Assembly: GCA_041653535.1 (NCBI GenBank)
Contig: JBAZFH010000002.1
Span: 80,160 to 144,159, forward strand
Length of the DNA: 64,000 bases
Origin: Patescibacteria group bacterium
GTDB taxonomy: Bacteria > Patescibacteriota > Patescibacteriia > JACRDY01
Direction of reading: 5' to 3'
The notes below the pieces were generated by a model that did not search any database, was not told the origin of the DNA, and saw nothing but the letters and a program-made list of their open reading frames with translations. Below are positions 1 to 54,650 of this stretch, piece by piece. Numbering within the stretch: position 1 is the first letter of the stretch; each line of letters starts with the position of its first letter. Both the position numbers and the translations under genes were made by a program.

Positions 1-37
1 ATCACGACAACGACGAGTACCTGAAGATCCGAATTAC

Positions 38-265
38 ATGGGTCCGATAGGGGGAGCAACAGCGTCTCAAAAAAAACACCCCCGCATGATATTTGAAGGA
101 AAGCACGAGAGTATTGATGAGCGAGATTTTGAAAAAAATCATTCAGTGCTTAACGAAGATAAGCCAATGTGGGTAACAATAGATATTAGCGAAACCGATC
201 CGTCAGTAAAAGACAATCCTTCACCTATCATCGCGCCGCGAGTGCGCCGACTAGACCTTGATTGA
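38..265 (+). CDS. small hypothetical protein (paralog A; conserved C-terminal TDPS..SPI(I/L)APRxRRL motif)
   Basis: ORF from track; its C-terminus is shared with the next ORF at protein and DNA level; no family recognised. Confidence 0.3.
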   Translation: MGPIGGATASQKKHPRMIFEGKHESIDERDFEKNHSVLNEDKPMWVTIDISETDPSVKDNPSPIIAPRVRRLDLD

Positions 266-13612: not shown

Positions 13613-13625
13613 TTGTTTCTTTTAT

Positions 13626-13697
13626 GCGCCCGTAGTTCAATGGATAGAACGAGAGCCTTCTAAGCTTTAAATCTAGGTTCGATTCCTAGCGGGCGCG
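13626..13697 (+). tRNA. tRNA-Arg(TCT)
   Basis: cloverleaf folded by eye: acceptor gcgcccg/cgggcgc, anticodon loop cttCTaa, T-loop ttcgatt. Confidence 0.8.
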
Positions 13698-13733
13698 GAG
13701 ATAATTAACAATTATTAATTAGTATTTGAATAT

Positions 13734-13809
13734 GGTGGCTATAGTGTAATGGTTAGCACTCGACTCTGTGGAAGTCGCGGTTCGGGTTCAAATCCCGATA
13801 GCCACCCCA
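13734..13809 (+). tRNA. tRNA-His(GTG) with G-1 and encoded CCA; attL of the integrated island
   Basis: acceptor gtggcta/tagccac, anticodon loop ctGTGga, T-loop ttcaaat; extra 5' G. Confidence 0.8.
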
Positions 13810-15393
13810 CAAGGCACTCTTCTTTACGGAAGAGTGTTTTGTTTTGGAAATTAAGCCAATTTGGACAGGTTCTAAGGTTTTTATTTCTTCCAACCCAGTT
13901 TTTACAATTTCAAAGGGTTTTTGCAGGTTCAAAGATAATTGACGGTCTTTCAAAATAAAACCAGAGCCTAAAGATATTAAGATAGTCTTTTTAGTATCTA
14001 AGTCGCCGTTTTTAAACCAATGACGCGCATAGCAAGAGAATTCAAAAGTCTTCTCAACGTTCTCCCTCCAGTTGTCAGCTCGGCTTTCATAATTTTTTAA
14101 TTGCTCAGCCATTTTTTCCCTCTCTTGCAAAAGTTTATTTTTCCGTTCAGTATATTCGGCATCATTTATTAGTTCACTTATTCTCATTGAAAGCAGGCTG
14201 TCTAATTTCTTTTCTACATTATCGTAAGCTTTTTGTTGGGTGGCTCGGATTATTTCTCTTTCCTTAATCTCACCATCATTAAGATTGTTGAGCCATTTTA
14301 TAGCCCAGTTTTTAAAATCTTCTGGTATTTGTATTTTTTCTAAATAAGCGTCAACTTGTTTTTCGAGCTCTTTTATCTCGAGGGTTTTTTGGCTACACTT
14401 CGGGCAAACATTTTTCCCCTTGCCACAGCGATAGTAGGTGTAATGGTGGGCGTTGCCGTTTTTTTGTTTCTTGAATTTTTCCTCCGCAGTTATCATAGAG
14501 CCACACTCTCCGCAGCGTATAAGCCCCGTAAACGCAAAATTATGCGTTTTAGGGCGTGACTTACCCTTTCTACCCAGTATCTCTTGTACGCGCCAAAAAT
14601 CATCTTCTGTGATGATTGTTTCATGTGCCCCCTTGTACCACTCGCCCCTATATTGGAATTTTCCAAAATAGAATGGGTCAGCCAAAATTCTATAGATAGT
14701 ACTCTCAGCCATTGGTCTGCCACCCTGTCTTTTAGTTTTAGGAGTTAAATATCCCCATTCATTATTCATCTTGTCTAACACTTGAGCGACAGTATATTTT
14801 TGGGTCAGAATCAACTCGAAAGCCTTTTTAATTAATGGCAACCTTGCGGTATCGGGTAGGAGTTTCTTGTCCCCTTGTTCGGAGAGTTTGTCTGGTAAAT
14901 ACCCTGGCTTAGCTCCAGGCAACCACCCCATTTTTACTTTTTGCATCAGCCCCCTAATTGTATTTCGGCGTAAGTCGATAATAAATTGGTTCGCTACCCC
15001 AAACTCCATATTCATAAGAAGCACATTGTCTCCTGGATAGTAGTCTCTCTCGGGAGTTTTAATGTGTTTAATAATACCTTGCTGCAAAAGCCAATTAATT
15101 CTGCCACCATCTATTGGGTTCCTAGCTAGGCGGTCTAATTTCCAACAGATTATACCCTGCGCCTCTCCGTTTTCTATTCTCGTAATCATCTCATTGAAAA
15201 TTGGGCGCCCTGGGCTTTTAGCCGACATGGATTCTTTGAATATATGTATGCTGTTTAAACTAAACTTTTTCGCCGCCTCCTCACTAGTTGAAAGCTGCGC
15301 GGGAATAGATAAGGCTTGCCTGTCTTCCGCGGCTTCAGACTTTCTAGCATAAACGAAGTACTTTATAGTGTCTAAATTTTCCAAATTAGTCAT
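13753..15393 (-). CDS. large serine recombinase (resolvase/invertase N-domain + recombinase domain + zinc ribbon)
   Basis: N-terminal YARKSEAAEDRQALSIPAQ with catalytic Ser; C-terminal CGECGSM...YYRCGKGKNVCPKC zinc ribbon; 3' end overlaps tRNA-His. Confidence 0.85.
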   Translation of the reverse strand: MTNLENLDTIKYFVYARKSEAAEDRQALSIPAQLSTSEEAAKKFSLNSIHIFKESMSAKSPGRPIFNEMITRIENGEAQGIICWKLDRLARNPIDGGRINWLLQQGIIKHIKTPERDYYPGDNVLLMNMEFGVANQFIIDLRRNTIRGLMQKVKMGWLPGAKPGYLPDKLSEQGDKKLLPDTARLPLIKKAFELILTQKYTVAQVLDKMNNEWGYLTPKTKRQGGRPMAESTIYRILADPFYFGKFQYRGEWYKGAHETIITEDDFWRVQEILGRKGKSRPKTHNFAFTGLIRCGECGSMITAEEKFKKQKNGNAHHYTYYRCGKGKNVCPKCSQKTLEIKELEKQVDAYLEKIQIPEDFKNWAIKWLNNLNDGEIKEREIIRATQQKAYDNVEKKLDSLLSMRISELINDAEYTERKNKLLQEREKMAEQLKNYESRADNWRENVEKTFEFSCYARHWFKNGDLDTKKTILISLGSGFILKDRQLSLNLQKPFEIVKTGLEEIKTLEPVQIGLISKTKHSSVKKSALWGGYRDLNPNRDFHRVEC

Positions 15394-15401
15394 ATTTGCC
15401 T

Positions 15402-15614
15402 CTATTTTGTCGTTTCGCCTTCTTTGCCCTCTTTATCTTCCTTGGGGTTTGTTAGTCGGTTGTTTCCGCAAAATTGGCAACCTTTCCGATAGAAAGGCAG
15501 TATAAAAATCCAAAGTCCGCCGGTGACCAATACGGCGATAAATGTGCCGAAAGTAAAATGCCTTTTTGAGGTGACGTTCCTTTTACAAAGAACGCAATAG
15601 CCGAATCTTCGCAT
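15402..15614 (-). CDS. small membrane protein with CxxC pairs
   Basis: 70-aa ORF: CVLC...CQFCGNN plus a TM helix. Confidence 0.3.
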   Translation of the reverse strand: MRRFGYCVLCKRNVTSKRHFTFGTFIAVLVTGGLWIFILPFYRKGCQFCGNNRLTNPKEDKEGKEGETTK

Positions 15615-15869
15615 AAATGTCTATTTATTAATTAATTTTATAGCCATACTACTAAAACTGCTCGAAACTAGATAAAGCTACTAAGATTTATTCAAAATTA
15701 CCTCGTTTTGTAGTTTGACAACTAAAAAGCCCCCACCCATCGGTTTTTACGAACTTGCGTTCGTATGTGCGTCAACACTAGCCGAGGATGAGGGCATCCT
15801 AAGTGTTGACGCACAAAGTTGTATTGATATTCTACCGCTGTTTTAGGCATAAATCAATACTTTCGTGCT

Positions 15870-16217
15870 TTATTTGTCGAATAATGAACGCCATTCCTCT
15901 TGTGTTCGTGGGCGCATGCTTTTGAGTCCATATAATCTTTTTTCAGAATCCTCGATGTTTTTGGATATTGCCTTTTTGTGCTCTGTGAGAGCTTTAATTT
16001 GGTTAGGGTTCATGGAGTATAGCGAGCTACCCTGTTTATCAATCAGTTCTTGTTCATATTTTGTTATTCTGCGCAGGTTCCAAAAATCTAAGGCGATATC
16101 TTCCACCAATTCGATTTCTAGTTCGGTGACTGGTTTTAGTATCAGCCTCATCCTCTCTTTCAATTTAGTAAGTTCCTCAAGATTATCATTGTTAGTTAAG
16201 GAATTTTCATTTTCCAT
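15870..16217 (-). CDS. hypothetical helical protein (island cargo)
   Basis: ORF; start overlaps the stop of an upstream 48-aa ORF. Confidence 0.35.
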   Translation of the reverse strand: MENENSLTNNDNLEELTKLKERMRLILKPVTELEIELVEDIALDFWNLRRITKYEQELIDKQGSSLYSMNPNQIKALTEHKKAISKNIEDSEKRLYGLKSMRPRTQEEWRSLFDK

Positions 16218-16357
16218 ACTTTTTGTAGTTATTAATTATTTTATCTAAAAAACCAGCAATGGTTTTGGTGTCTCTGTTATCGTCCAGATAATCCCTTTGT
16301 TTTGGGTCAATACGCACCAGGGCTTTAAATCTCGTTTTTCTTTTAGTTGATGTCATA
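16211..16357 (-). CDS. 48-aa ORF, possibly a ribbon-helix-helix DNA-binding protein (antitoxin-like)
   Basis: MTSTKRKTRFKALVRIDPKQRDYLDD: basic beta-strand then helix; ATGGAAAATGA stop/start overlap with the downstream gene. Confidence 0.25.
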
Positions 16358-16671
16358 AGTATACTTAATAGCTCCCTCTGGCTCTCCTGCCCGAATAGAC
16401 ACTTGTTCGCCTGGTTTTTAGATGGGACTGCCCGAGAATCTCGTCTCGGTCAAAGCAGTTTTTATCATTCGGTGTAGGTGTCGCCGTCGGTCGCTATCTT
16501 AATTCAGTTAATTGATAATTGAATTAAGATAAAGACCATTATTTTTTGATTGGCTTGTATATAGTTTTAAATAGATTCAAAAGGTTTGTAGCTTGTTTGG
16601 CGGCTTCAGCGCTACTAATTTCTATCCCGCAGCTATCCTTATATATTTGTTGAAATTCTTTTATAGCCGTT

Positions 16672-16923
16672 TCAGTCAGCATAAACTCTGCTTTTTAACT
16701 CTTTAAGAGTATTGAAATAAATTAGCGGGTCGACGGTTAGTCCATGAGCCCAAAATAATTGTATTAGTTGGTCTAAATACTCGTCTCGTCTTATAAGGAA
16801 TTTTATTTTTTGTGGGTTTTCTTTGTCTGTTGCTTCTACGCAATATCCGAGGCAACCGAGCGTCGCACATAAGGAAAGGTCAGAGGTCTTAAAATAATCA
16901 TTTTCATTTAATTTTTGGGTCAT
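16672..16923 (-). CDS. hypothetical protein
   Basis: 83-aa ORF. Confidence 0.3.
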   Translation of the reverse strand: MTQKLNENDYFKTSDLSLCATLGCLGYCVEATDKENPQKIKFLIRRDEYLDQLIQLFWAHGLTVDPLIYFNTLKELKSRVYAD

Positions 16924-17065
16924 ATAATTTTCATTAATTTTGTTTTTATTATGACAAAACCACCTATCCGGTGTTGAAAAGGTGGTTTTTATTAAACAAA
17001 AAATAGCCTTAATTTGGCTATTATTTATTTAGCTTTCTACGTTTTAGGTAAAAAGATTACCACTT

Positions 17066-17815
17066 TTACTTTTTTGTTTTTTTATTTTCAACCCAAACCT
17101 TCCTGCCTTTTACGTGGAAAGAGAATCTTTTATTAAGACCGTTTCTTTTTAATGTCCTTTGTATTTCCTTGATGGTGGTTTTTATTTTTTCAATTTTTTG
17201 CCATTCATTATAGTCGTCGGTCAGTAATCCGTTTTTTTGGTCTTTTGGCTCTTGAATTATATTAATTATCTCATTCGTAGAAGTGGCTAAGCCAAAATAG
17301 TCCCAGAGACGTTTTATTAGCCTACCTTGCCTAGTGTTATATTTGGCGACTTTTATATTCCTACTGTCAATATTTAAATAACAAAATTTAATATTCCCTT
17401 CTTTTTTGATAGAAACTTTACTGGTAGTTTTATCATTAGATGGGTATTTTAAATTTTTTATTTGTAAAGAATTTTGATAGGCGGTAGCTTTTGTTTTGTA
17501 TGATTTCTTAAAATTTTTAAATTCATTTTTAAATTTTTGTTCGTTAGTAGAAAATTCGAAATAACCATTAATATCTTCTTCAAGTGGGTATTTAATATTT
17601 TTTATTACCCCCTTCTTCTGCAATATTTGAAAAGCCCAAATTCTTCCTTTGATAAGTTCGGTTAGTTCTACACCCTTTATCCCTTTATTGTATTTATTTG
17701 CTACCCACCCGCCTAGCAATGGTATTTTAATTTTATTTTTCTCGGATACAAAGAAGCTCCTTATTTCTTGCAAGGCATTCCAGACTCTCTCTGTTTCCTT
17801 TCTATCTAAATACAT
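17066..17815 (-). CDS. lysine-rich hypothetical protein (island cargo)
   Basis: 249-aa ORF, no recognised domain. Confidence 0.4.
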   Translation of the reverse strand: MYLDRKETERVWNALQEIRSFFVSEKNKIKIPLLGGWVANKYNKGIKGVELTELIKGRIWAFQILQKKGVIKNIKYPLEEDINGYFEFSTNEQKFKNEFKNFKKSYKTKATAYQNSLQIKNLKYPSNDKTTSKVSIKKEGNIKFCYLNIDSRNIKVAKYNTRQGRLIKRLWDYFGLATSTNEIINIIQEPKDQKNGLLTDDYNEWQKIEKIKTTIKEIQRTLKRNGLNKRFSFHVKGRKVWVENKKTKK

Positions 17816-17974
17816 TAATCTTAATTTTAATCTTAATTTATATTCTTATTTTAGCACTTTTAGTTAGTTCTTTAAAGATGAAAATCAGCCAGAGTTTACC
17901 CGTTATGTATTTATTCAGAAAATGAGCTATAATTAAACTCGCAGTCTTGCTGGAGTATTAAAACATTAAAATGT

Positions 17975-19165
17975 ATGGAAAATCCTATTTTTATACCAAA
18001 ATTAATCCAAAACGAAGCTGGCTTTGTAGATAAAATAAAATTGCCAGCTATTTTAATGGACGCTAATATTGTTGCCTTTTCCCCTAAAATATCCGGCAAG
18101 ATAAGAGCGTCTGCAGATAGTTTTATTATCAATCCGGTCACTAATTTTTTTGTTGAAAATTCATTCATAGGCAAAAAAGCATTTAAGAAGTTGCCTACGG
18201 CTCCAGCTAAGCCCTATAGAGTTGAAGAGCTATTAACAAACGAAAAGTTAAGACGAGATGAATTGGTTTGGAAAAATATTGAGTATCAGATTAACAATAA
18301 AGCTAATATAATTATTATCCCTTACATTTATTCTGACAGCATTAATGATTCCAAATTCGGAATAAATTTAAGTATGATTTCTGACGCTTTAAAATTATTA
18401 AAAGTAAATAAAATAAATATCCCAGCGTATGCCATGATTAACATGGGCTCAAGTGTTTTGAATGATTTTACTGGACTAAATAACTTGATAGAAAGATACC
18501 GTGATGATTTTAATGACAAGATAAATGGTTTTTTTATGATGTTTGACGGCTTTGATTGTAGAAAAGCCGTGGATGATTCATTAATGGGTTTAGCCTATTT
18601 AACATTTTATTTGTCCGAGAATAAAAATACCTTCATTTTAAACCTGGGTGATTTTGGGGATGTATTATGTGCTATAGGTGCAAGGGGATATAGTAGCAGT
18701 TTGGGCGGTGGTGAAATATTTAATGTAGAAAAGCTATCCAAGGAAACTAAGAGTCGAGGCAGAAATCATAAAATTTTCTCTTACGTGCCCGAGGTGTTTG
18801 ATTATTTAAATAATGAATCATTAAGAAAAATTGGTTATAAATGTCCCTGCTCTATTTGCGATAATGGAATACCTAATGGCTGGAATAACGCAAAAGCCCA
18901 TTTTCTAAACAGAAAATTGGAGCGGATGGATAATTTAGCCAATTTAAATCGTGACCAGAGAATTGATTTTATTAAATTAAAAATTGAGCAAGCCGTTGAA
19001 CTAATATCTGTATATAATGCAAATTTTGCATTATCTATAAAGACGGATTTTTTGCTAAGATGGAAGAATGTTTTGGAAAAATCACGCCACTGGTCTTATA
19101 GCAAGCGAGAGACTGAAGCGGTGGATTTAGATAAAATAATTGAAGAAGCTAGAAAAAACAAATGA
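17975..19165 (+). CDS. tRNA-guanine transglycosylase (TGT)-like / DpdA-like protein
   Basis: NGFFMMFDGFDCRKAV resembles the TGT GIDMFDCV catalytic-Asp motif; C-terminal YKCPCSICDNG...AKAHF matches the TGT CxCxxC...H zinc site; N-terminal NPIFIPKL resembles TPxFMPV. Confidence 0.5.
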   Translation: MENPIFIPKLIQNEAGFVDKIKLPAILMDANIVAFSPKISGKIRASADSFIINPVTNFFVENSFIGKKAFKKLPTAPAKPYRVEELLTNEKLRRDELVWKNIEYQINNKANIIIIPYIYSDSINDSKFGINLSMISDALKLLKVNKINIPAYAMINMGSSVLNDFTGLNNLIERYRDDFNDKINGFFMMFDGFDCRKAVDDSLMGLAYLTFYLSENKNTFILNLGDFGDVLCAIGARGYSSSLGGGEIFNVEKLSKETKSRGRNHKIFSYVPEVFDYLNNESLRKIGYKCPCSICDNGIPNGWNNAKAHFLNRKLERMDNLANLNRDQRIDFIKLKIEQAVELISVYNANFALSIKTDFLLRWKNVLEKSRHWSYSKRETEAVDLDKIIEEARKNK

Positions 19166-19608
19166 GAATCGTGCCAGATACAAATTTATTAATTCAAGGA
19201 TTGCTTTTTAGAGGCACAGCTAGAAAAATAATCAACTTGGCTTATGAGAAAAAAGTTGATTTTTATGGTAGTGCGAATTCTTTTAATGAAATAAAAAGAG
19301 TAGTCTACTATTCTCGATTTAAAAAATACCTTGAGAATGAAATATTTTCCCCAGAAAAAATAATGATTTCTTTTAAGTCCCTCATCACCGTTGTTTCTAT
19401 AGACTCAAAATATAAAAATTCAAAATTTGTCGCCGATGATGCAGATGACGATGAGTTTATAAGAATAGCTAAGACAGTACAATCAAAATTTATTATTTCA
19501 AGCGATAAGCATTTAAAGAATATAAAAAAAGTCGACGATATAAGAATCGTCGAGCCAGAAATTTTTTTGAAGATATATCCAACTATATCAGGAAAAACAT
19601 TTTTTTAA
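19162..19608 (+). CDS. PIN-domain nuclease (VapC-like)
   Basis: MRIVPDTNLLI start, acidic DDADDDEF and SSDKHL motifs; start overlaps upstream stop (AAATGA). Confidence 0.65.
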   Translation: MRIVPDTNLLIQGLLFRGTARKIINLAYEKKVDFYGSANSFNEIKRVVYYSRFKKYLENEIFSPEKIMISFKSLITVVSIDSKYKNSKFVADDADDDEFIRIAKTVQSKFIISSDKHLKNIKKVDDIRIVEPEIFLKIYPTISGKTFF

Positions 19609-20259
19609 TTGTTGTTTTCCTAAGATAAACTCAGCGGCTAAATTAAACTTATGCCTATTTAAGGGTCGAGTGGCTTTTACTCGACTTATTTTTTTTGTAT
19701 GCTTATCGGGGTCAAATAAAATTAATCCTATATTATGTTTTTTAAGTAGCTCGCGGTCTACTAGATGACCTCTAGCAGCTGGCATGGCTAGGTATGCTTT
19801 ATTAGCAAAAGATTTATATCTATTGGCTTGCACAAATCCCTTTTTCCAATCTTTAAGTTTGGCTTCAATGGCAATGATTTCTTTAGCGATGGGCATCCAA
19901 CCATTTATCTTGAAATAGTATTTGTTATCAACTTTTTTTATAAAGCCATTATTTTCTAGGGTTTTTAAATATTTATATTTTAGAGTTGCCTTTGGAATAT
20001 TTAGATTTTTAGTTAGGCTGTTTAGGTCAACTTTTTTATTAGCGCCTAGCTCTGGCAAGTAATCAAAAATTTTAAAAAATTCCTCATTTTTTATTTTTTT
20101 GTATTGTTTGTTTTTGTTTCTGATGGCGCACTTATCTGGATTGACTCTAAATAGGACTAAATCTGCAACCCCATAACCAACGCCAACCTCCCTTTTGGTT
20201 AAGAAACCTTCCTTAATGAATTTTTCTTCCAAAAGTTTGACAAATTTTTTTTCTGTCAT
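19588..20259 (-). CDS. PD-(D/E)xK-fold nuclease with inserted winged-helix domain
   Basis: GYGVADLVLF ... IAIEAKLKDWKKGFVQANRY (D...ExK) with a wHTH segment between; converges on the PIN gene with ~20-nt overlap. Confidence 0.5.
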   Translation of the reverse strand: MTEKKFVKLLEEKFIKEGFLTKREVGVGYGVADLVLFRVNPDKCAIRNKNKQYKKIKNEEFFKIFDYLPELGANKKVDLNSLTKNLNIPKATLKYKYLKTLENNGFIKKVDNKYYFKINGWMPIAKEIIAIEAKLKDWKKGFVQANRYKSFANKAYLAMPAARGHLVDRELLKKHNIGLILFDPDKHTKKISRVKATRPLNRHKFNLAAEFILGKQQLKKCFS

Positions 20260-20357
20260 AATAAAATTATAGCATAGTTTAAAGTAATACTGAAATCCAC
20301 AGTCATCCGCCCCGTTAGGGTTTTTATTACCCCAGATTTTTTATTGGAATTTTGTGT

Positions 20358-20660
20358 TTAAGGTGCATCGACAGTATCTACGGTTTCTAAGTCGTCTAGA
20401 GCCCATTCCATATCATCGCAGCTAGACCATGAATAGTCTTGAGCATCTTCTATGTTAGAATTACACTCCTCTATGTTGTTGTTGGCTTGTTCTAGGGCAT
20501 CTTGATAACTATAAAGTTGGTTTTCACAATAGTAAAGTTGGCTGTCGTAATAGAGAAGTTGGTTTTTCATTTCCTCTGTAGCTTGATTATTTTTCCATAT
20601 CCAAATACCACAAACTAGTATAACTAAAAAGATTAAAATTTTTAGCTGTTTTACCCCCAT
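20358..20660 (-). CDS. membrane-anchored acidic small protein
   Basis: N-terminal TM helix, acidic Cys-containing C-terminus. Confidence 0.35.
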   Translation of the reverse strand: MGVKQLKILIFLVILVCGIWIWKNNQATEEMKNQLLYYDSQLYYCENQLYSYQDALEQANNNIEECNSNIEDAQDYSWSSCDDMEWALDDLETVDTVDAP

Positions 20661-20848
20661 ATATTAATCATTTTTTTTAATCAATTCTTTCCAAACGTAA
20701 ATAGTTAATATTACGAACGGTATTGGTGCTAACGCAATTGCATCACTGTTCGGCTTTTCAATTATAACCGACCAAGCGAAGTAAACCGATAGAATTAGAA
20801 TGATAATTCTGAGCCAACGAAAAAAATTTTTCATATAAATAAATTAAT

Positions 20849-21247
20849 TTATTTTTTCTTAGCTAGCCAATATCCACCAGCTCCAGCTCCGCCTAGTCCC
20901 AAAACCCAAGCCCAGGTATTATCTGATTTATCAGAAGAATCTTGTTCGGAGTTGATTTTAGCAATTGGTCGCTGATTAACTTCGAGTTTAGGGATTTCAT
21001 ATTCTGGTGCGGGTTCTGTTGTTCCTGTCCCATTAGCTCCGTAAGTGCTTTTTATGGGCTCTTCTGGCTGAGGCAAAGCTTTAGCTTGGTGGCAATGATA
21101 TTCGCCCGTGCCGAGACCCCAAGAGGAGCAATTTGTTCGACAGGTATGACAACCAGAAGCATCGGTTCTGCCAGGATGTGCTTGAGCAATCAGAACAAAG
21201 CTAAAAGAGGCAATAAATAGTGCTATAGATAGGGATACTTTGTACAT
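20849..21247 (-). CDS. secreted YHYH-like small protein with C-terminal hydrophobic anchor
   Basis: signal peptide; HPGRTDASGCH...GEYHCH resembles YHYH-domain proteins; C-terminal GLGGAGAGGYWLAKKK. Confidence 0.4.
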   Translation of the reverse strand: MYKVSLSIALFIASFSFVLIAQAHPGRTDASGCHTCRTNCSSWGLGTGEYHCHQAKALPQPEEPIKSTYGANGTGTTEPAPEYEIPKLEVNQRPIAKINSEQDSSDKSDNTWAWVLGLGGAGAGGYWLAKKK

Positions 21248-21499
21248 ACTTTAATCATATCGGAAAATGGTGATAATTTAAATAGGGCGCTTTTGTTTCA
21301 AGAAAATAAACCCGTAGAGTTTCAATTATCTCAATCAATCCGTTTCTAACTTCCTTTCGCCCGCCACCCCATAAAAAAGCATTTGCCTTTTGGCATAATG
21401 CTTTTTTATTTTGTAAGACTGAGGGGTTTGAACGGTCCGCCAGCTGGCGGATGCCCAGGGCGATGAACCCAGCTGCGGGGCTCTGCAGCTGGGGACGAG

Positions 21500-21517
21500 A
21501 TCCCGATAGCCACCCCA
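21500..21517 (+). repeat. attR: 18-nt direct repeat of the tRNA-His 3' end
   Basis: exact match to 13792-13809. Confidence 0.65.
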
Positions 21518-29227: not shown

Positions 29228-29292
29228 CTAGGTGGTAGCTGGTAGTTGGTAGCTGGGGATAAATAGGAGATTGGTAGGTGGTAATTAGGGGT
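29228..29292. repeat. low-complexity GGTAG/TAGG tract (left arm of inverted repeat flanking a four-helix-bundle gene)
   Basis: gctaggtggtagctggtagttggtagctgggg...ggtaggtggtaattagggg; inverted partner at 29705-29733. Confidence 0.55.
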
Positions 29293-29340
29293 AAAAAGTT
29301 TAGATATTTTTAACATCTTATCCTTTATTCTGATTCTATT

Positions 29341-29703
29341 ATGAGTAATTCAATAAAAGACTTTACGGATTTAGAAACCTGGTGGGAAGCCCAGCGCCTA
29401 CTTTTAGAAATCTATAAAACAACCGAAGACTTTCCTAAAGACGAACTTTTTGGGTTAGTTAGTCAGATTAGAAGAGCTTCTGTTTCTGTTACGTCAAACA
29501 TTGCCGAAGGTTTTTCTAGGTATTCTTTGGCGGAGAAAACAAGATTTTATAATATAGCCTATAGTTCTGTCGTCGAAGTTTATAATCAATTGATTGCAGC
29601 TAAAGACTTGGGTTATATAAAAAAAGAATGCTTCGAACAAAACATTTTGATTATAATCAGCGTCAAAAAATTGATTAACGGTTTGATAAAAAGTCTCTGT
29701 TAG
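29341..29703 (+). CDS. four-helix-bundle protein (TIGR02436; 23S rRNA intervening-sequence protein family)
   Basis: FPKDELFGLVSQIRRASVSVTSNIAEGFSR family signature. Confidence 0.8.
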   Translation: MSNSIKDFTDLETWWEAQRLLLEIYKTTEDFPKDELFGLVSQIRRASVSVTSNIAEGFSRYSLAEKTRFYNIAYSSVVEVYNQLIAAKDLGYIKKECFEQNILIIISVKKLINGLIKSLC

Positions 29704-29704
29704 T

Positions 29705-29733
29705 CACCCCAACTACCAACTACCACCTACCAT
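29705..29733. repeat. right arm (CCAACTACC tract) of the inverted repeat flanking the four-helix-bundle gene
   Basis: ccccaactaccaactaccacctacca = reverse complement of the upstream tract. Confidence 0.55.
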
Positions 29734-33325: not shown

Positions 33326-33568
33326 TTATATTAGTCTCTTGTTTCTAAAGGTCATACCAGATGCTGTCTTTAGATATTTTTCAAAATCCAAAGCCCGTTT
33401 TTTGTCATCAAAAGCGGAATAATAAAGCATTTTCCACGGCTTAAACTTATTGGTATGAGGAGATTTTCCTTTATTATGATCAGCTAACCTTTCATCAATA
33501 TCTTTTGAAAAGCCAGTGTAAAACTGTTTTGGAAAATTTACGCTCTGGATGATGTAGACGTAAAACAT
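33326..33568 (-). CDS. GIY-YIG nuclease family protein (YhbQ/UPF0213-like)
   Basis: MFYVYIIQS...YTGFSKDIDERLADHN GIY-YIG motifs; ~80 aa. Confidence 0.8.
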   Translation of the reverse strand: MFYVYIIQSVNFPKQFYTGFSKDIDERLADHNKGKSPHTNKFKPWKMLYYSAFDDKKRALDFEKYLKTASGMTFRNKRLI

Positions 33569-33590
33569 TTGATTTGATTATTACCTATTG

Positions 33591-33702
33591 GCCGTGCCAT
33601 CCGTAGCTCGCGACAAGAATAGCAGTGTAAACGTCAACAAAATACAGCCCTCCTTCGCTCTTCGAGCTACGGAGGATATTCTTCGCTCTAGTGAGCGAAG
33701 AA
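33591..33702 (-). repeat. conserved ~110-nt structured element, copy 1 (between tRNA-Ala and the GIY-YIG gene)
   Basis: shares a 27-nt 5' block and a 58-nt 3' block with 34982-35094; internal stems ccgtagctcg/cgagctacgg and ttcgctc/gagcgaa. Confidence 0.5.
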
Positions 33703-33778
33703 TGGTGGACCCTACCGGGCTCGAACCGGTCACCTCTTCCATGCCATGGAAGCGCTCTACCAAATGAGCTAAGGGCCC
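33703..33778 (-). tRNA. tRNA-Ala(GGC), CCA encoded, G3:U70
   Basis: gggcccttagctcatttggtagagcgcttccatGGCatggaag...ggtccacca. Confidence 0.8.
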
Positions 33779-34215
33779 CCACACCAACCTTAAACCGTCG
33801 GTAATTTGTTAAGAATAATGATTTTAACAAAACGACGTTTTAGTACTTTGAATAGTCTAATCAAAGTTGGTTTGGGGGCAAGCCCAAGAATAAATTAAGG
33901 ATAAAAGTTAATCAACGAACCAAATGCTTGTCCGCCGCCTGTCTACGCGAAGTTCGCCGCGGCGAACGAAGGCAGGAAGCCCGAATGTAATGAGGGCGAA
34001 GGTGGAAGCTAATGGCCCAAAACTAAATAAAAAATTAAAAATCAAATATCAAAAATATTGTACGATGACAGTATTTTAGCAAATTGGACGAATAATGCAA
34101 CAAGGTAGTTATAGTATAAGAAAACTGAATTAAAACAGCTTCGGTATTTATTTTAAATATTTTACGACTCTTGATTTTGTTTAATTTTAGATATTATTTA
34201 CCACAACCACCATTT

Positions 34216-34250
34216 ACCATCTACAAATTTGTTTCACGTGAAACATTTTT
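34216..34250. repeat. left terminal repeat containing the perfect 16-bp palindrome TGTTTCACGTGAAACA
   Basis: accatctacaaatttgtttcacgtgaaacattttt; inverted partner at 36388-36422. Confidence 0.55.
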
Positions 34251-34270
34251 TCTTCTTAGCGAATTTGACT

Positions 34271-34303
34271 GGATAAAAAGATGGTAGTAATATATTATTG
34301 TCT
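34271..34303 (+). promoter_or_regulatory. sigma70-like promoter (TTGACT-N17-TAATAT)
   Basis: ttgactggataaaaagatggtagtaatat directly upstream of the structured region. Confidence 0.45.
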
Positions 34304-34446
34304 GAACGGCTAAATTTCCTCGACCATCCTTGAGAGAGAACAGTTTTGAACAAACAGCCAGACCAGGCAGCCAGCATTTTTTTACTGCCGTTCAGACGTC
34401 AGTCAATCAGTCGGGTCTCACATGGGACCCGACTTTTTATTTTTTG
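34297..34446 (+). ncRNA. candidate small RNA (~150 nt) with closing stem and intrinsic terminator
   Basis: closing stem tgtctgaacggc/gccgttcagac; terminator gtcgggtctcacatgggacccgac + T8; promoter upstream; no ORF. Confidence 0.4.
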
Positions 34447-34981
34447 CCACTACCCTTTTTATTGCTAAGGTGGCTTACTCCTTTTTGCCTCAAAAGACAA
34501 GAGGTCTAGGGAAAGGGGAGTAGTGGTAAAATATAAGAAAGTACCATAATTTTTGACAAAATCATCTGAAAAAGATAAAATAATAGCATGATTTATTCGT
34601 CGAGCAGCCATTTTTAATAGCTGCCGCAACCTTTTTGGCAACGTGTATTGGCCACGTTGGACGAATAGATTATTCCGTGAGGGGCATCCGCCTTACCGCG
34701 AAGATGATCGTTTAACGACGGAACGACCATACAAAACGACTACCAAACCTAGCCGGCCAATATAAGCAATGTCTTTTGACGCTCAGCTTTATATACGACT
34801 AGCCAAGAATGTAGTACGTCGTTCACCTACCCAATAGAACGCTTCGGCGTTCTTTTTAATTCCTTACAGGAAACCCCGCATGACCAAAGCGCCCCGAAGC
34901 TGGGCGCGAATGGAGTGCGGTGAGGACGTTGTTTACAACGAAAAACGGGGGTATTCCCCCACTGTCTTTTAAATAATTTTG

Positions 34982-35094
34982 ACCGTGCCATTCGTAGCTT
35001 GCGACAAGGGAAAAGAAATAAGTAACTTATAGCTCTCCTTCGCTCTTCGAGCTACGGAAGACATTCTTCGCTCTAGCGAGCGAAGAATAGTGGG
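34982..35094 (-). repeat. conserved ~110-nt structured element, copy 2 (abutting a tRNA-Val 3' fragment)
   Basis: accgtgccattcgtagcttgcgacaag ... ctccttcgctcttcgagctacggaagacattcttcgctctagcgagcgaagaatagtgg. Confidence 0.5.
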
Positions 35095-36387: not shown

Positions 36388-36422
36388 ATTTTTGTTTCAC
36401 GTGAAACATTTTTGTAGATGGT
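36388..36422. repeat. right terminal repeat containing the TGTTTCACGTGAAACA palindrome
   Basis: aatttttgtttcacgtgaaacatttttgtagatggt; gtagatggt is the reverse complement of accatctac at 34216. Confidence 0.55.
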
Positions 36423-36575
36423 ACGCGATGCTTGGTAGAAATAAACTCTAAAATTAAACTAATTCAAGTGTCGTACAATGTATTACTAAACTTTAGAAAT
36501 TTTTAATTTGCTTTTTGATAAAACTAACAACGGTGGTATAATTCTAGCTGATAATCTACTTAAAATCAATCTTTT

Positions 36576-42763: not shown

Positions 42764-42832
42764 TACCATTTATTGCTGAATAAAAAAACCGTTAGAAAAC
42801 TGACGGTTTTTGGGAGACCATGACCGGATTTT

Positions 42833-42882
42833 CTCCCTTCGGGAGATGTCCCCTCCAGAGGCGGGCAAGCCGCAGGGACAGA
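42833..42882 (+). repeat. ~50-nt structured direct repeat, copy A (flanks tRNA-Cys)
   Basis: tctcccttcgggagatgtcccctccagaggcgggcaagccgcagggaca; the copy at 43019-43068 is identical. Confidence 0.6.
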
Positions 42883-42915
42883 ACCGGTGAGGTCTTAAAC
42901 TAGACGGGGTGAAAA

Positions 42916-42986
42916 AGGCCTGGACCGGATTTGAACCGGTGATAAGGGTTTTGCAGACCCTTGCCTTACCACTTGGCGACCAGGCC
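42916..42986 (-). tRNA. tRNA-Cys(GCA)
   Basis: ggcctggtcgccaagtggtaaggcaagggtctGCAaaaccc...ggtccaggcct; discriminator U. Confidence 0.8.
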
Positions 42987-43018
42987 ATAAAAGAAACAAA
43001 CGGTAAATTGTTAATGTT

Positions 43019-43068
43019 TTGTCTCCCTTCGGGAGATGTCCCCTCCAGAGGCGGGCAAGCCGCAGGGA
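43019..43068 (+). repeat. ~50-nt structured direct repeat, copy B
   Basis: identical to 42833-42882. Confidence 0.6.
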
Positions 43069-43176
43069 CACAGACCCTTGCCTTATCCGCCGCGGCGGAC
43101 GACGTGACCGAACAAAAACAGTTTAACAAAAATATATTTAAAAATCAATGTTTTTCTAAAATATTTTGTATAAAGA

Positions 43177-47167: not shown

Positions 47168-47418
47168 ATTGTTGCTATTAATAGTATTATAAAAACCCGC
47201 ATCTTACGGGTTTTTGTTTTTATTAATCTAAGATTATAGCATAACTAAGTTATGCTGTCAAGAGTGTAGTAAATCTTAGCAAGCCAAACCGATTCGGTCA
47301 AGGGTTTGTTTCGGCATAAACAAGATATTGCTTTTTTCCTCTTTGTGTATTAAACTTCTAGCACCGAACGTTGATTAACTGAAAAAATTTGCTATAATTT
47401 GTTTGTTTTTAAGTGTTG

Positions 47419-47492
47419 GGGCATGTAGCTCAGATGGTTAGAGCGCGTCACTGATAATGACGAGGTCGGAGGTTCGATTCCTCCCATGCCCA
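47419..47492 (+). tRNA. tRNA-Ile(GAT)
   Basis: gggcatgtagctcagatggttagagcgcgtcactGATaatgacg...cccatgccca. Confidence 0.8.
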
Positions 47493-47496
47493 CTTT

Positions 47497-47546
47497 GCCG
47501 AGGTAGCTCAGTGGTACCTGCCTGCCGGCAGGCAGGGAGCGAAGGA
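47497..47546 (+). other. duplicated 5' portion of tRNA-Phe, split by a 20-nt GC palindrome
   Basis: gccgaggtagctcagtggta + cctgcctgccggcaggcagg + gagcgaagga; the same 30 nt are contiguous in the intact tRNA-Phe at 47796. Confidence 0.55.
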
Positions 47547-47555
47547 TAAAAAAAT

Positions 47556-47795
47556 ATGCAGTATTTTATTTATGTTATAAAAAGCAAAAAGGATGGTCGA
47601 TTGTACGTTGGAATGACATCCGATCTTGAAGAAAGGTTGTTTTATCATAATGCCGGTTATCAATTTTCGACAAAAGGATATAGGCCGTGGGAAATAGTAT
47701 ATTCAGAAAGAGCGGCTTCTAGATTGTTGGCTAGACAGCGAGAAAAATATTTCAAGAGTGGTTGCGGAAAAGAATTTTTAAAAAGTTTTATTTGA
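47556..47795 (+). CDS. GIY-YIG nuclease family protein (YhbQ/UPF0213-like)
   Basis: MQYFIYVIKSKKDGRLYVGMTSDLEERLFYHN; stop codon directly abuts tRNA-Phe. Confidence 0.85.
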   Translation: MQYFIYVIKSKKDGRLYVGMTSDLEERLFYHNAGYQFSTKGYRPWEIVYSERAASRLLARQREKYFKSGCGKEFLKSFI

Positions 47796-47870
47796 GCCGA
47801 GGTAGCTCAGTGGTAGAGCGAAGGACTGAAAATCCTTGCGTCGGCGGTTCAATCCCGCCCCTCGGCACCA
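47796..47870 (+). tRNA. tRNA-Phe(GAA), CCA encoded
   Basis: gccgaggtagctcagtggtagagcgaaggactGAAaatcc...cctcggcacca. Confidence 0.85.
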
Positions 47871-47880
47871 CTTCATTTTT

Positions 47881-48153
47881 ATGTATTACCTATATTTACT
47901 AAAAAGTAAAACTGACAATAAATGTTATATTGGTTCTACAAACGACTTAAAGAGGAGGCTGGAATAACACAATAAAGAATTAGTTGTTAGTACAAAATCG
48001 AAAAGACCATTTGAACTTTTGTATTATGAGGCTTACAAAAACGAAAAAGATGCTAGACTTAGGGAAAGCAGGCTTAAGTTGAAAAGCAGGGCATATGAAC
48101 AATTAAGGAAAAGATTAAAAAATAGTATAAAAGAAAGTGAAACTGCTGTGTAG
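47881..48153 (+). pseudogene. GIY-YIG nuclease gene interrupted by an in-frame TAA at 47965-47967
   Basis: MYYLYLLKSKTDNKCYIGSTNDLKRRLE*HNKELVV...; GIY-YIG motifs lie on both sides of the stop. Confidence 0.6.
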
Positions 48154-48226
48154 TTGGAAGGAGCGTCCGCCCTGGGCGGATGAGACCAGCGAGTTTGAGT
48201 CCATTATTGGTCAACAATTTATTTAT

Positions 48227-48300
48227 CGGGGTGTAGCTCAGTTGGCTAGAGCGCGTGCTTTGGGAGCATGAGGCCGCAGGTTCGAGTCCTGTCACCCCGA
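48227..48300 (+). tRNA. tRNA-Pro(TGG) with C1:G72
   Basis: cggggtgtagctcagttggctagagcgcgtgcttTGGgagcatg...gtcaccccga. Confidence 0.75.
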
Positions 48301-48315
48301 TTTTCAGAAATATTA

Positions 48316-48575
48316 TGGATGACCTAGAAAAAGAAATAGACCTGATCAAAGAACGCAACAAAAGAGTAGAATCGGATAAAGCCTGGGAACTAAGTTTTTT
48401 TAGAAAACTAGTTATTGCTATTTTGACTTATATCCTGATCACTCTTTTTTTCTTAGCTGCCGGAATAGAAAAGCCGTTTGTTAATGCGCTAGTGCCAACA
48501 GTTGCTTTTATTTTATCTGGTTTATCTTTGGCATTTTTTAAGAAAATTTGGTTAAAATATTTTTATAAAAAATAA
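48316..48575 (+). CDS. small membrane protein
   Basis: 86-aa ORF with two TM helices; the track ORF start at 48255 lies inside tRNA-Pro and is rejected. Confidence 0.35.
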
Positions 48576-48589
48576 TCGCGCGGGTATCG

Positions 48590-48661
48590 TATAGCGGTTA
48601 TTATCTCAGTTTTCCAAACTGATGATGCGGGTTCGACTCCCGCTACCCGCTGATAAAAAAT
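48590..48661 (+). tRNA. tRNA-Gly(TCC)
   Basis: gcgggtatcgtatagcggttattatctcagttTCCaaactga...ctacccgct. Confidence 0.8.
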
Positions 48662-48708
48662 AACCAATAATCTGGTTATTTTTTATTTTTAGTGTTACTG
48701 TTGAGTAT

Positions 48709-49302
48709 ATGCTTCAATATCTTATTTTTATAGCCGCTATCGTTCAATTGATGGGATCTCTCTTGTATGTTAAAGAAACTCTTAAAGGTAAAAATAAGCC
48801 AAACAAAATAACCTGGCTAATCTGGTCATTGGCTCCTTTTATCGGCACTGCCGCAGCTATGAGTAACGGAGTGGGTTGGGCGGTGTTGCCTGTTTTTATG
48901 TCGGGGTTTGGCCCATTTTTAATATTTATATCATCTTTTTATAATCCGCAATCTTATTGGAAGCTAGGGTTTTTTGATTATGTTTGTGGGGCGCTAGCTA
49001 TTCTTGCTTTAGTCTTGTGGGCAATAACAAAGCAGCCGATAGCGGCTATATTATTAGCGATAACCAGTGATGTTTTGGCGGCCATACCAACGGTTATAAA
49101 AACTTGGCGGTATCCAGAAACCGAAACCGTACAGCCCTACATTACCAGTTTGTTTGGTGCTCTGACCGGGTTTTTTGCTATCAAGGTTTGGATATTATCA
49201 GCCTATGCTTTTATCACCTACCTAGCTCTGCTAGATAGCTTTGTTGTGATTATGTATTACTATCGTTTAAAAAAGAAGGCTTCTTATGCACAGAATCAGT
49301 AA
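48709..49302 (+). CDS. membrane hypothetical protein
   Basis: 197-aa ORF with 5-6 TM helices. Confidence 0.45.
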   Translation: MLQYLIFIAAIVQLMGSLLYVKETLKGKNKPNKITWLIWSLAPFIGTAAAMSNGVGWAVLPVFMSGFGPFLIFISSFYNPQSYWKLGFFDYVCGALAILALVLWAITKQPIAAILLAITSDVLAAIPTVIKTWRYPETETVQPYITSLFGALTGFFAIKVWILSAYAFITYLALLDSFVVIMYYYRLKKKASYAQNQ

Positions 49303-54099: not shown

Positions 54100-54152
54100 A
54101 GGATGATAAGAGGTTAGGAGGGTAGGATGTTAGGATGTTAGGAGGGTAGGTG
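54100..54152. repeat. low-complexity TAGGATG/GGTAGG tract (left arm; also abuts the trmD start)
   Basis: ggatgataagaggttaggagggtaggatgttaggatgttaggagggtaggtg; inverted partner at 54604-54650. Confidence 0.55.
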
Positions 54153-54245
54153 AAATAGTTTAAAAATATTTAATAATTTTTTTTAGATCTATTTAATCTA
54201 CCATTAGCTATATTCTAGACGCTTTAACTAATAACTGCAAATTCT

Positions 54246-54605
54246 ATGACAACCAAATCGTTTCGTGATTTAATCGTCTGGCAAAAAAGCTTCGAGCTAA
54301 CTAAAGAAATCTATCAATTAACCAAATTATTCCCAAAAGACGAGCTATTTGGCTTAACCTCTCAGATTAAGAGAGCGACCGTTTCTGTCCCCTCCAACAT
54401 CGCTGAAGGGTGCGAAAGAGGCTATAAGCAAGAATTGCTTAGGTTTTTATTGATTGCCCTCGGTTCTGCCGGCGAATTAACAACTCAATTATTGATTGCT
54501 AGAGATTTGAAAATGGCAGAAAAAAAATATTTTATAAAATCCGAAGGGCTACTATTAGAAACGACTAAATTATTACATTGTTTTATCCGCAAGCTTAAAT
54601 CTTAA
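54246..54605 (+). CDS. four-helix-bundle protein (TIGR02436; 23S rRNA IVS protein family), second copy
   Basis: FPKDELFGLTSQIKRATVSVPSNIAEGCER signature. Confidence 0.8.
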   Translation: MTTKSFRDLIVWQKSFELTKEIYQLTKLFPKDELFGLTSQIKRATVSVPSNIAEGCERGYKQELLRFLLIALGSAGELTTQLLIARDLKMAEKKYFIKSEGLLLETTKLLHCFIRKLKS

Positions 54606-54650
54606 CATCCTATCCTTATATCCTCCTAACATCCTATCCTCCTATCTTCC
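54604..54650. repeat. right arm (CATCCTA tract) of the inverted repeat flanking the four-helix-bundle gene
   Basis: aacatcctatccttatatcctcctaacatcctatcctcctatcttcc. Confidence 0.55.

Follow-up and report, generated by a model that had tools for sequence, protein, structure and literature searches.

A tRNA-linked GIY-YIG nuclease cassette in a Patescibacteria tRNA array and its counterparts in related loci

The Ile-Phe-Pro-Gly tRNA array and its GIY-YIG genes

The DNA analysed here, called the window, is a stretch of 64,000 nucleotides (nt) from a Patescibacteria (candidate phyla radiation, CPR) chromosome of 41% G+C that carries a bacterial 16S gene and ordinary housekeeping genes. Between positions 47419 and 48661 it holds an array of four tRNA genes (Ile, Phe, Pro and Gly) in which two small genes of the GIY-YIG nuclease type are lodged, one ahead of tRNA-Phe and one behind it. 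Our subject is the unit formed by such a gene, a split partial tRNA copy on its left and an intact copy of the same tRNA on its right, which we call the cassette. A first-pass annotation made from the letters alone had described the order of elements in this array, and direct reading of the window sequence gave the same order at the same coordinates, with some additions:

47371 to 47398, plus strand: promoter-like site TTGATT-16-TG-TATAAT upstream of the array; 10 of 12 consensus matches with an extended -10, a consensus match only
47419 to 47493, plus strand: tRNA-Ile(gat), first in the array (ARAGORN; Rfam tRNA 76.5 bits)
47497 to 47516, plus strand: 5' fragment A, a copy of tRNA-Phe positions 1-20 (20/20 against 47796-47815; BLAST E 3e-6 within the window)
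47517 to 47536, no strand: palindrome P, CCTGCCTGCCGGCAGGCAGG, perfect, 20 nt, at the D-loop/D-stem junction GGTA/GAGC
47537 to 47546, plus strand: 5' fragment B, a copy of tRNA-Phe positions 21-30 (10/10 against 47816-47825)
47556 to 47795, plus strand: GIY-YIG gene 1, intact, 79 amino acids (aa), Slx1/UPF0213 type (Pfam PF01541, E 3.4e-14)
47796 to 47870, plus strand: intact tRNA-Phe(gaa) (ARAGORN; Rfam 71.9 bits)
47881 to 48153, plus strand: GIY-YIG gene 2, a pseudogene (Pfam E 4e-17 if read through)
about 48151 to 48203, plus strand: degenerate tRNA-Pro copy, positions ~14-64 (local alignment score 40 against a shuffled 95th percentile of 29)
48226 to 48301, plus strand: intact tRNA-Pro(tgg) (ARAGORN; Rfam 68 bits)
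48315 to 48575, plus strand: 86-aa predicted membrane open reading frame (ORF) between tRNA-Pro and tRNA-Gly
48580 to 48651, plus strand: tRNA-Gly(tcc), last in the array (ARAGORN; Rfam 61.4 bits)

Only 3 nt separate tRNA-Ile from fragment A, which spans the 5' strand of the acceptor stem, the 5' strand of the D-stem and the D-loop. Fragment B continues with the 3' strand of the D-stem and the 5' strand of the anticodon stem, and the duplicated part of tRNA-Phe is thus 30 nt long (20 + 10), or 50 nt with the palindrome counted. The ATG of gene 1 follows after 9 nt, and its TGA (47793-47795) ends at position -1 of the intact tRNA-Phe. There are no terminator-like sites inside 47250-48750. The leader made of the two fragments and P has no Rfam match at gathering or E-value thresholds, and its folding energy is unremarkable (z = -1.0).

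The second GIY-YIG gene had been placed correctly by the first-pass annotation, with its ATG 10 nt past the CCA of tRNA-Phe, but that reading missed two things: the gene is broken, and a decayed tRNA-Pro copy lies behind it. An in-frame TAA (47965-47967) falls one residue before H31, and the halves on either side of it match the GIY-YIG profile in the same frame. The terminal TAG of gene 2 sits within the decayed tRNA-Pro copy, in which the anticodon arm was replaced by, or has diverged to, the hairpin tccgccctgggcgga. Gene 2 followed by a decayed tRNA copy therefore repeats the gene-then-tRNA layout of gene 1, with the intact tRNA-Pro one step beyond. Read in this way, the operon would have been colonised twice by a compact nuclease cassette, with the Phe copy still intact and the Pro copy decaying. 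The 86-aa ORF, whose stop lies 4 nt ahead of tRNA-Gly, matched no Pfam family above threshold and may represent another type of gene lodged in a tRNA leader.

The window holds three GIY-YIG ORFs and no others, all matching PF01541 (E 3e-14 to 4e-17). Sequence no more than 135 nt from a tRNA end makes up about 5% of the window, and all three genes fall in it; by a rough estimate the chance probability of this is about 1e-4.

Recurrence of the layout, the nuclease, and occupied and empty sites

A scan that took one genome per species confirmed at least 563 relatives, and the best 80 loci (labelled L002, L012 and so on) were studied. They come from Bacteroidota, Patescibacteria, Ignavibacteriota, one metagenome-assembled genome (MAG) of Planctomycetia and several MAGs labelled Gammaproteobacteria. 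A same-strand tRNA overlaps the stop codon or lies no more than 10 nt past it in 56 of the 80, and is found within 100 nt in a further 8; the density of the other tRNAs in these loci would give about 0.001 such adjacencies per locus. The commonest offsets between tRNA and ORF are -10 (21 loci), at which U8-A9-G10 of the tRNA doubles as the TAG stop codon of the ORF, and -23. With about 12 tRNA identities used by the family, the proposal that these small genes are tied to tRNA genes is borne out well beyond the window.

The partial copy on the left recurs as regularly. Of 69 loci with a tRNA within 300 nt, 63 have a 5' piece of that same tRNA within 400 nt ahead of the ORF. Of 61 control regions only 4 gave such a piece, and the reverse strand gave none in the 69 loci. 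This piece begins exactly at tRNA position 1 in 41 of the 69 loci and usually ends at position 27-35, 0-20 nt ahead of the ATG. It is split by an insert of at least 19 nt in 52 of the 69, the modal insert being exactly 20 nt, and 37 of 60 inserts sit at the last D-loop base (NNTA/GARY, between positions 21 and 22). P itself, with up to 3 mismatches allowed, occurs in the 200 nt ahead of the ORF in 51 of the 80 loci, irrespective of tRNA identity (five Arg isoacceptors, Asn, Met, Phe, Lys, Leu).

Several variations on this plan occur. In mirror-image loci an intact tRNA with a terminator comes first, then the ORF, then a 3' piece or near-full tRNA copy that carries P in the D-loop, anticodon loop or T-loop. 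Full-length tRNA copies with P in the D-loop form tandem arrays beside the intact gene in L031 and L067 and occur singly in L015 and L022. Cassettes can be stacked (two identical units in L002; similar arrangements in L044 and L034), and in L038 two different GIY-YIG genes are each followed by a tRNA-Asn copy. Decay is seen in gene 2 of the window and in the truncated ORFs of L026 and L066. Arrays syntenic to that of the window were found only in L029 and L022; L029 has the order Ile, 5' piece with P, gene, Phe, Pro, Gly, and lacks both gene 2 and the 86-aa ORF. We also considered insertion of a gene-plus-tRNA unit into an anticodon loop; the 3' tRNA fragment expected past the intact tRNA is present in only 8 of 63 loci, and this model was rejected.

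An assembly artefact was rejected, since isolate genomes and independent assemblies show the same layout. In L021, L048, L068, L254 and L255 the cassette/tRNA repeats coincide with runs of N or with contig ends. Such repeats probably break short-read assemblies and go under-reported.

Partial tRNA genes have been attributed in the literature to integrating elements and to CRISPR. tRNA genes are classical integration sites at which integration leaves partial copies (10.1101/2022.07.05.498093), and the pieces described here could be taken for attachment-site scars of larger elements that an integrase had inserted and excised, with the GIY-YIG gene as leftover cargo. The window does contain a case of that kind: tRNA-His has a serine recombinase gene beside it, and 18 nt of its 3' end recur at a distance of 7.7 kb. 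At the cassette, however, it is the 5' part of the tRNA that is repeated, the unit is only about 250 nt long with no integrase inside, and the same compact layout is found in more than 60 species. The scar explanation is already contradicted by this anatomy, and we give it hardly any weight.

What does the gene encode? The three ORFs of the window score 53.3, 62.7 and 62.8 bits against PF01541 (curated cut-off 22.6), and the residues that are invariant in the family alignments (Y6, Y17, G19, R27, H31, N32 and E63) are all present in gene 1. A protein identical to that of gene 1 is on record from a 323-kb MAG contig. The solved UPF0213 proteins EF2693 and BH0048 and the SLX1 nuclease domain match the family profile; run against PDB sequences, it gave 1ywl at 5e-6, 1zg2 at 2.5e-5 and SLX1 at 1e-4. 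An AlphaFold2 model of the gene 1 product (predicted local distance difference test, pLDDT, 90) superposes on Slx1 with a root-mean-square deviation of 1.6-1.8 Å (1.6 Å over 70 columns) and a template-modelling (TM) score of 0.75. Searched with Foldseek, the model returned 1zg2 with E 7e-5 and I-TevI with TM 0.5-0.6 and E > 0.6. Model and profiles together indicate that the protein is a minimal Slx1/UPF0213(YhbQ)-type GIY-YIG nuclease, closer to that branch than to I-TevI/UvrC, and the label "YhbQ-type" given at first pass was apt. With the stand-alone UPF0213/YhbQ proteins (PDB 1zg2, 1ywl) it shares fold, family, minimal size, the lack of an auxiliary domain and the Tyr/Tyr/Arg/His/Glu set; those proteins differ in having been described without tRNA linkage, partial tRNA duplication or palindrome (PMC1564403). 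In 20 close pairs with estimable synonymous divergence (dS), the ratio of nonsynonymous to synonymous divergence (dN/dS) was 0.03-0.18, a range that points to strong purifying selection on the protein. Most dS values were 1-2, so that the synonymous sites are saturated.

If the cassette is dispensable, orthologous tRNA sites without it should exist. The search for close relatives of the window with an empty site at tRNA-Phe was dropped for want of synteny, and a Bacteroidales lineage was used instead. Its reference locus, L012, carries the cassette on tRNA-Arg(cct) beside cvpA and tyrS, and CvpA homologs with 83-97% identity are abundant. L012, L021 and L031 have the cassette at the orthologous tyrS-cvpA-tRNA-Arg(cct) site. 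The site is empty in L239-244, L248-253, L260 and L261, which fall into four distinct CvpA clusters 86-89% identical to L012: the gene order is kept, the tRNA is intact, and there is neither a GIY-YIG gene nor P. In the alignment the same promoter, TTGACA...TATACTTTTGCGACTGAAAT, stands at occupied and empty sites alike. At the empty sites tRNA +1 comes directly after the promoter, 190 nt from cvpA, and at the occupied sites it is the split 5' piece that starts there, at a distance of 189 nt from cvpA, with the ORF and the intact tRNA-Arg behind it. The presence/absence comparison that the first-pass annotation had proposed as a check thus yielded occupied sites and, in at least four lineages, cleanly empty ones, for the family at tRNA-Arg(cct) and not for the tRNA-Phe site. 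CvpA identity between the occupied L012 and L031 is about 80%, lower than between L012 and the empty lineages (86-89%), which requires either several gains or several precise losses.

There are at least two ways to read this pattern. The gene could be a non-mobile accessory host gene, a beneficial Slx1-like nuclease that acts on branched DNA or R-loops at tRNA genes or manages palindromic repeats; it would sit in a tRNA operon for strong co-expression, the 5' piece and P would be a cis-regulatory or stabilising leader, and the empty sites would reflect loss only. The low dN/dS over saturated synonymous divergence suits such a gene, as does the conservation of the leader piece, which is not decaying. 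So does the neighbour-joining tree (about 80 residues, a weak tree), in which most proteins fall into groups that share a tRNA type and a host clade (Leu; Met in Flavobacteriaceae; Arg-tct; Arg-cct; Asn in CPR). Some pairs have syntenic flanks, among them pairs within Bacteroidales and within Chitinophagales. The family is absent from the plasmids of PLSDB and almost so from phages, where a few Rhizobium phages gave matches of about 35% identity only. A 2006 survey of the superfamily regarded prokaryotic Slx1-like proteins as vertically inherited repair enzymes and mentioned no link to tRNA genes (PMC1564403).

Other observations fit a resident host gene poorly. Close relatives have the same promoter and tRNA cleanly without the gene, and occupied and empty lineages are interleaved. 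One genome can hold several divergent copies on different tRNAs (three in the window), different ORFs stand in tandem at one tRNA (L038), and some copies are pseudogenised. The three Phe-linked proteins are scattered in the tree, with gene 1 of the window among Asn-linked CPR genes, and two Pedobacter species share only the cassette and not its flanks, as do L029 and L022. A regulatory leader need not copy the neighbouring tRNA, and the stem pairs of P show no compensatory changes (see below). We therefore regard the host-gene explanation as unlikely, and comparison of the loci suggests to us that the cassette is mobile.

Palindrome P, a candidate mechanism and precedents

P is not peculiar to the tRNA-Phe site. 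The exact 20-mer was found in at least 120 metagenome stretches and in 35 viral contigs. Among the sites listed, a family GIY-YIG gene lies within 400 nt at 9 of 127 in metagenomes and 1 of 42 in viruses (many of the contigs are short), and a tRNA lies within 600 nt at 11 of the 127. This spread through metagenomes and viruses makes P a widely dispersed element in its own right. In metagenome contigs it occurs in low-complexity intergenic repeats. The window contains two copies in total, the second being:

11531 to 11550: second P copy, CCTGCCTGCCGGTAGGCAGG, one mismatch, intergenic and without tRNA-like flanks

A copy in L075 (898-917) lies in frame inside a 638-aa DnaG-primase-like ORF, reading …DPEIKD-LPAGRQE-PKYVNTPET…. 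Palindromic elements inside Rickettsia genes offer a parallel.

How is P conserved? In the collected copies 600 of 632 stem pairs are consensus and 0 are compensatory, which indicates that conservation acts at the level of the sequence. Selection at the RNA level was considered and the comparison was not informative (G.U versus A.C changes 17:10, no compensatory pairs). The idea that P targets the loops of larger hairpins was likewise set aside, the enrichment of flanking stems of at least 7 bp being weak (6% of P sites versus 1.6% of controls). In two variant 20-mers, CCTGTCTACCGACAGGTAGA and CCTGTCTGCCGCCAGGCAGA, which occupy neighbouring positions in the tRNA pieces, the CCTG head and the 6-bp hairpin (5-10/15-20) are preserved through double changes. 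P is also found nested in P, with the outer copy split after position 9 or 11 when read by eye.

The first-pass annotation took the duplicated tRNA segment for a target duplication or homing footprint. Across distances that saturate the synonymous sites of the gene, P keeps its sequence at 20/20 and the 5' piece shows no difference from its partner tRNA. A neutral scar would be expected to diverge, so that the segment and P are a conserved part of the unit rather than a passive footprint, kept in step with the tRNA by either gene conversion or selection. There are three candidates for the role of P: (i) an interrupter of the spare copy, giving immunity or reduced repeat homology, (ii) a binding or cleavage site of the nuclease, and (iii) a repeat unconnected with the nuclease that persists only where the tRNA copy is dispensable.

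A different reading of the whole arrangement is centred on P. Repetitive extragenic palindromes (REPs) are short GC-rich hairpin repeats with a GTAG 5' tetranucleotide, present in many dispersed copies and flanking the gene of a REP-associated tyrosine transposase (RAYT), an HUH/Y1 enzyme. P resembles them in its fixed 5' tetranucleotide CCTG followed by a hairpin, its dispersal across metagenomes and its place beside a nuclease gene; it differs in that this enzyme is GIY-YIG and not HUH/Y1. We know of no REP counterpart of the tRNA-gene context. In a system of this type the nuclease would cut and so spread the P family (5'-CCTG plus 6-bp hairpin), and the tRNA duplications and tandem arrays would be collateral. 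The cross-phylum conservation of P argues for this, as do its dispersal, its position next to the ORF in both cassette orientations and the hairpin-preserving variants. The nested copies are split where a symmetric cut with a 2-nt 3' overhang, typical of GIY-YIG enzymes, would fall. Tandem P-bearing tRNA copies beside the gene (L031, L067) recall the segmental amplification by SegB of phage T4 (PMC13096335). Against it, a hydrolytic nuclease alone is unable to insert DNA, no clear target motif is seen in the flanks of P outside tRNA contexts, and few of the listed P sites have a family gene nearby, which on short contigs is weak evidence either way. The usual REP partner, a Y1 transposase, stands near one related locus, so that another enzyme may move P. 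We consider this palindrome-centred system improbable, a little more so than the host gene. The Y1 transposase in question is a 113-aa Y1_Tnp ORF (IS200/IS605 or RAYT-type) at 4756-5097 of the Bacteroidales locus L256, 1.7 kb from cvpA, where the tRNA-Arg site is rearranged.

A wider proposal would join both parts. Slx1-type nucleases and the 20-bp CCTG-hairpin palindrome would form one new selfish system in which the nuclease cuts stem-loop junctions (the cloverleaf loops of tRNA genes and the centre of P), and its own gene and copies of P become fixed at the breaks. This would be a GIY-YIG counterpart of REP/RAYT that uses tRNA genes and ribonuclease P (RNase P) as a safe harbour. We put it forward as speculation that is probably wrong in this full form.

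The explanation that we prefer, with moderate confidence, is that of a dispensable, probably selfish, homing-type nuclease cassette living inside tRNA transcription units. On the left lies the old 5' part of the tRNA (positions 1-~30), at the original place of the tRNA behind its promoter and disabled by P; on the right stands a complete, presumably working tRNA that starts at or overlaps the stop codon. The nuclease mRNA would then be a long 5' leader of the tRNA precursor, transcribed from the tRNA promoter, and an RNase P cut at tRNA +1 would free the tRNA from it. Release by RNase P would keep the cost of insertion to the host low, in the way that splicing limits the cost of an endonuclease carried by an intron. 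In cassettes whose stop codon falls within the tRNA, processed transcripts would lack it and the level of nuclease might be kept low. For gain of the cassette, the nuclease would break a tRNA gene and the break would be repaired off a cassette-bearing copy, with tRNA sequence as homology; the outcome would be a partial duplication, one viable form of which is 1..x-ORF-1..76. For loss, recombination between the direct repeats would remove the cassette cleanly. The earlier suggestion that these genes behave as mobile, tRNA-gene-targeting elements survives to the extent that they are tRNA-linked, dispensable and probably mobile; the passive footprint falls away.

A number of points weigh against a homing-type cassette. 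The 79-aa product of gene 1 is entirely catalytic domain with no DNA-binding module, and a bare catalytic domain makes recognition of a specific site hard to explain. The intact tRNA beside the gene retains any target inside the tRNA, and the mirror-image form also retains the native leader. The presence/absence pattern could be explained by losses alone. Long vertical residence would explain the clade-wise clustering and strong purifying selection no less well than frequent homing, and perhaps better, and with no plasmid matches and only distant phage matches no vector for horizontal spread is seen. At the window itself, the flanking 197-aa protein had no homolog above about 60% identity, and three long contigs with homologs showed no synteny. 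P may be incidental beside the cassette, since it is far more widespread and so seldom near a family member at the sites listed. In the open-access literature searched we found no description of the cassette class.

Known systems resemble the cassette in part. The Seg proteins are of about 200 aa or more, have a DNA-binding domain, belong to the I-TevI/UvrC branch and are phage-borne; to our knowledge neither a partial target-gene copy nor a conserved palindrome flanks their genes. The cassette differs from them in its 80-aa Slx1-branch domain, its chromosomal location, its abutment on tRNA +1 and the split tRNA 5' piece. Even so, we take SegB of T4, a free-standing GIY-YIG homing endonuclease within a tRNA gene cluster (PMC2330249; review PMC2988022), to be the closest precedent. 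In both cases a nuclease gene lies between tRNA genes without an intron, and spread would be expected through a break in the allele that lacks the gene followed by gene conversion with flanking markers. Tandem or segmental amplification of neighbouring segments, reported for SegB (PMC13096335), has its likeness in the copies beside the gene in L031 and L067.

Two further parallels concern the interrupted tRNA copy. Collaborative homing at psbA of cyanophages pairs a free-standing endonuclease with an intron that interrupts the endonuclease's target. A short insert in a spare target copy near the nuclease gene could likewise give immunity; P differs in being 20 nt long and unable to splice, and the functional tRNA copy is uninterrupted. 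In fungal mitochondria, insertions of endonuclease ORFs (Paquin et al., 1994 and 2000) reportedly bring a replacement part-copy of the host gene, the displaced part becoming a pseudogene, and GC-rich double-hairpin elements occur in the same genomes. The likeness lies in an interrupted gene healed by partial duplication and in GC-rich hairpin mini-elements in the same regions; the differences lie in protein-coding organelle targets, duplication of the 3' end and another endonuclease architecture.

In Patescibacteria themselves, group I introns at 35/36 of tRNA genes have been reported, not the cassette layout (PMC13011429). These are likewise (semi-)selfish inserts in tRNA genes of the same phylum; the cassette differs in having no ribozyme and in lying outside the mature tRNA, with neutrality achieved, as we propose, through 5' leader processing instead of splicing. 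One locus, L004, combines both: behind its GIY-YIG gene, at ~4252-4600, is a tRNA-Asn with an insert of about 300 nt in the anticodon loop, which is consistent with the reported introns (PMC13011429) and explains why ARAGORN missed the tRNA there. In the open-access literature the sequence of P has no match, and we found nothing that joins GIY-YIG, tRNA and palindrome, or YhbQ and GIY-YIG. We rate the cassette as a variant of free-standing homing-type nuclease genes with a layout for which no description was found in that literature.

If the homing-type reading is true, UPF0213, for twenty years "uncharacterised" or a "putative repair nuclease", includes a large selfish-like clade of at least 563 members. 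The cassette would represent an unusual answer to the cost of insertion, the 5' leader of a self-duplicated tRNA that is removed by tRNA processing, and would account for many of the odd calls of partial tRNAs, and for many breaks in assembly, among genomes of Bacteroidota and Patescibacteria. It would raise the question whether an 80-aa nuclease reads structure (cloverleaf or cruciform) rather than sequence, and it would tie the nuclease to a cross-phylum 20-bp palindrome that even sits in frame within a primase gene. The minimal size of enzyme and site is of possible interest to tool developers.

Other tRNA-linked structures in the window

The third GIY-YIG gene and two structures without an ORF lie elsewhere in the window:

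33326 to 33568, minus strand: GIY-YIG gene 3, 80 aa (Pfam E 3.8e-17), downstream of tRNA-Ala(ggc) at 33703-33778
33585 to 33702: repeated hairpin element D5, 118 nt, between gene 3 and tRNA-Ala(ggc); second copy at ~34983-35093
13532 to 13593, plus strand: ORF-less tRNA-Arg(tct) analogue, made of positions 1-13 (13532-13544), a 38-nt GC hairpin (13545-13582) and positions 14-24 (13583-13593)
42815 to 43114, minus strand: tRNA-Cys nested in its own pieces (tRNA 42916-42986; 5' piece 43114-43009; 3' piece 42896-42815)

Gene 3 had been noted beside tRNA-Ala at first pass, and it is there, with the 118-nt element in between. The tRNA-Arg structure had been called the same footprint as that at tRNA-Phe. 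It is real, ends 31 nt upstream of the intact tRNA-Arg (13625-13698), and restores 24/24 nt of the tRNA when the 38-nt insert is removed; that insert is a different GC hairpin, not P, at a different point (between positions 13 and 14), and the two structures are analogous only.

At tRNA-Cys the 5' piece carries a 14-nt palindrome in the D-loop (43099-43086) and a 49-nt GC-rich element in the anticodon (43070-43022), and the 3' piece carries the same 49-nt element in the T-loop (42880-42832). The element consists of two hairpins, its copies are 98% identical, and its removal restores tRNA-Cys positions 18-47 and 44-71. An intact tRNA nested between its own halves is also present at tRNA-Pro of L022 (~3060-3300), and in the window a partial tRNA-Val copy follows tRNA-Val. 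Judging from the Arg, Cys, Val and Ala sites, a theme of this genome is the intact tRNA flanked by partial copies whose loops carry GC hairpins, whether a nuclease gene is present or not. On the homing-type reading, the Arg, Cys and Val structures would be either ORF-less relatives of the cassette or its relics. The 38-nt Arg hairpin, the 49-nt Cys element and the 118-nt tRNA-Ala element gave no match in the 238 loci compared, and the idea that they are widespread families was set aside.

A shared leader, aatttNcgtttgtttcttttat, lies directly ahead of the intact tRNA-Arg(tct) (13605-13624) and of the intact tRNA-Cys (43009-42987, minus strand). Both tRNAs have a partial copy of themselves upstream, and the shared leader suggests that such "replacement" tRNA copies have a common origin or processing signal.

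Inverted repeats of 87 nt (34159-34245 and 36393-36479, 80% complementary) enclose four tRNA genes and the partial tRNA-Val copy. The same block holds a GC-rich stretch of about 700 nt (~34250-34980) without a long ORF or an Rfam match, which may be an unannotated structured RNA or a decayed element. At tRNA-His (13735-13809) the last 18 nt are repeated at 21500-21517, and a large serine recombinase gene (545 aa; 13753-15393, minus strand; Resolvase, Recombinase and Zn_ribbon_recom domains) starts in or next to the tRNA; 13735-21517 looks like a 7.7-kb integrated element with tRNA-His attachment repeats.

Two ORFs of the 23S_rRNA_IVP (four-helix-bundle) family, 119-120 aa long, lie at 29341-29703 and 54246-54605. 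Each is framed (29233-29732 and 54110-54649) by inverted heptamer-like quasi-repeats, TGGTAGC.../TAGGATG..., and low-complexity repeats like these arms surround many of the P copies in metagenome contigs.

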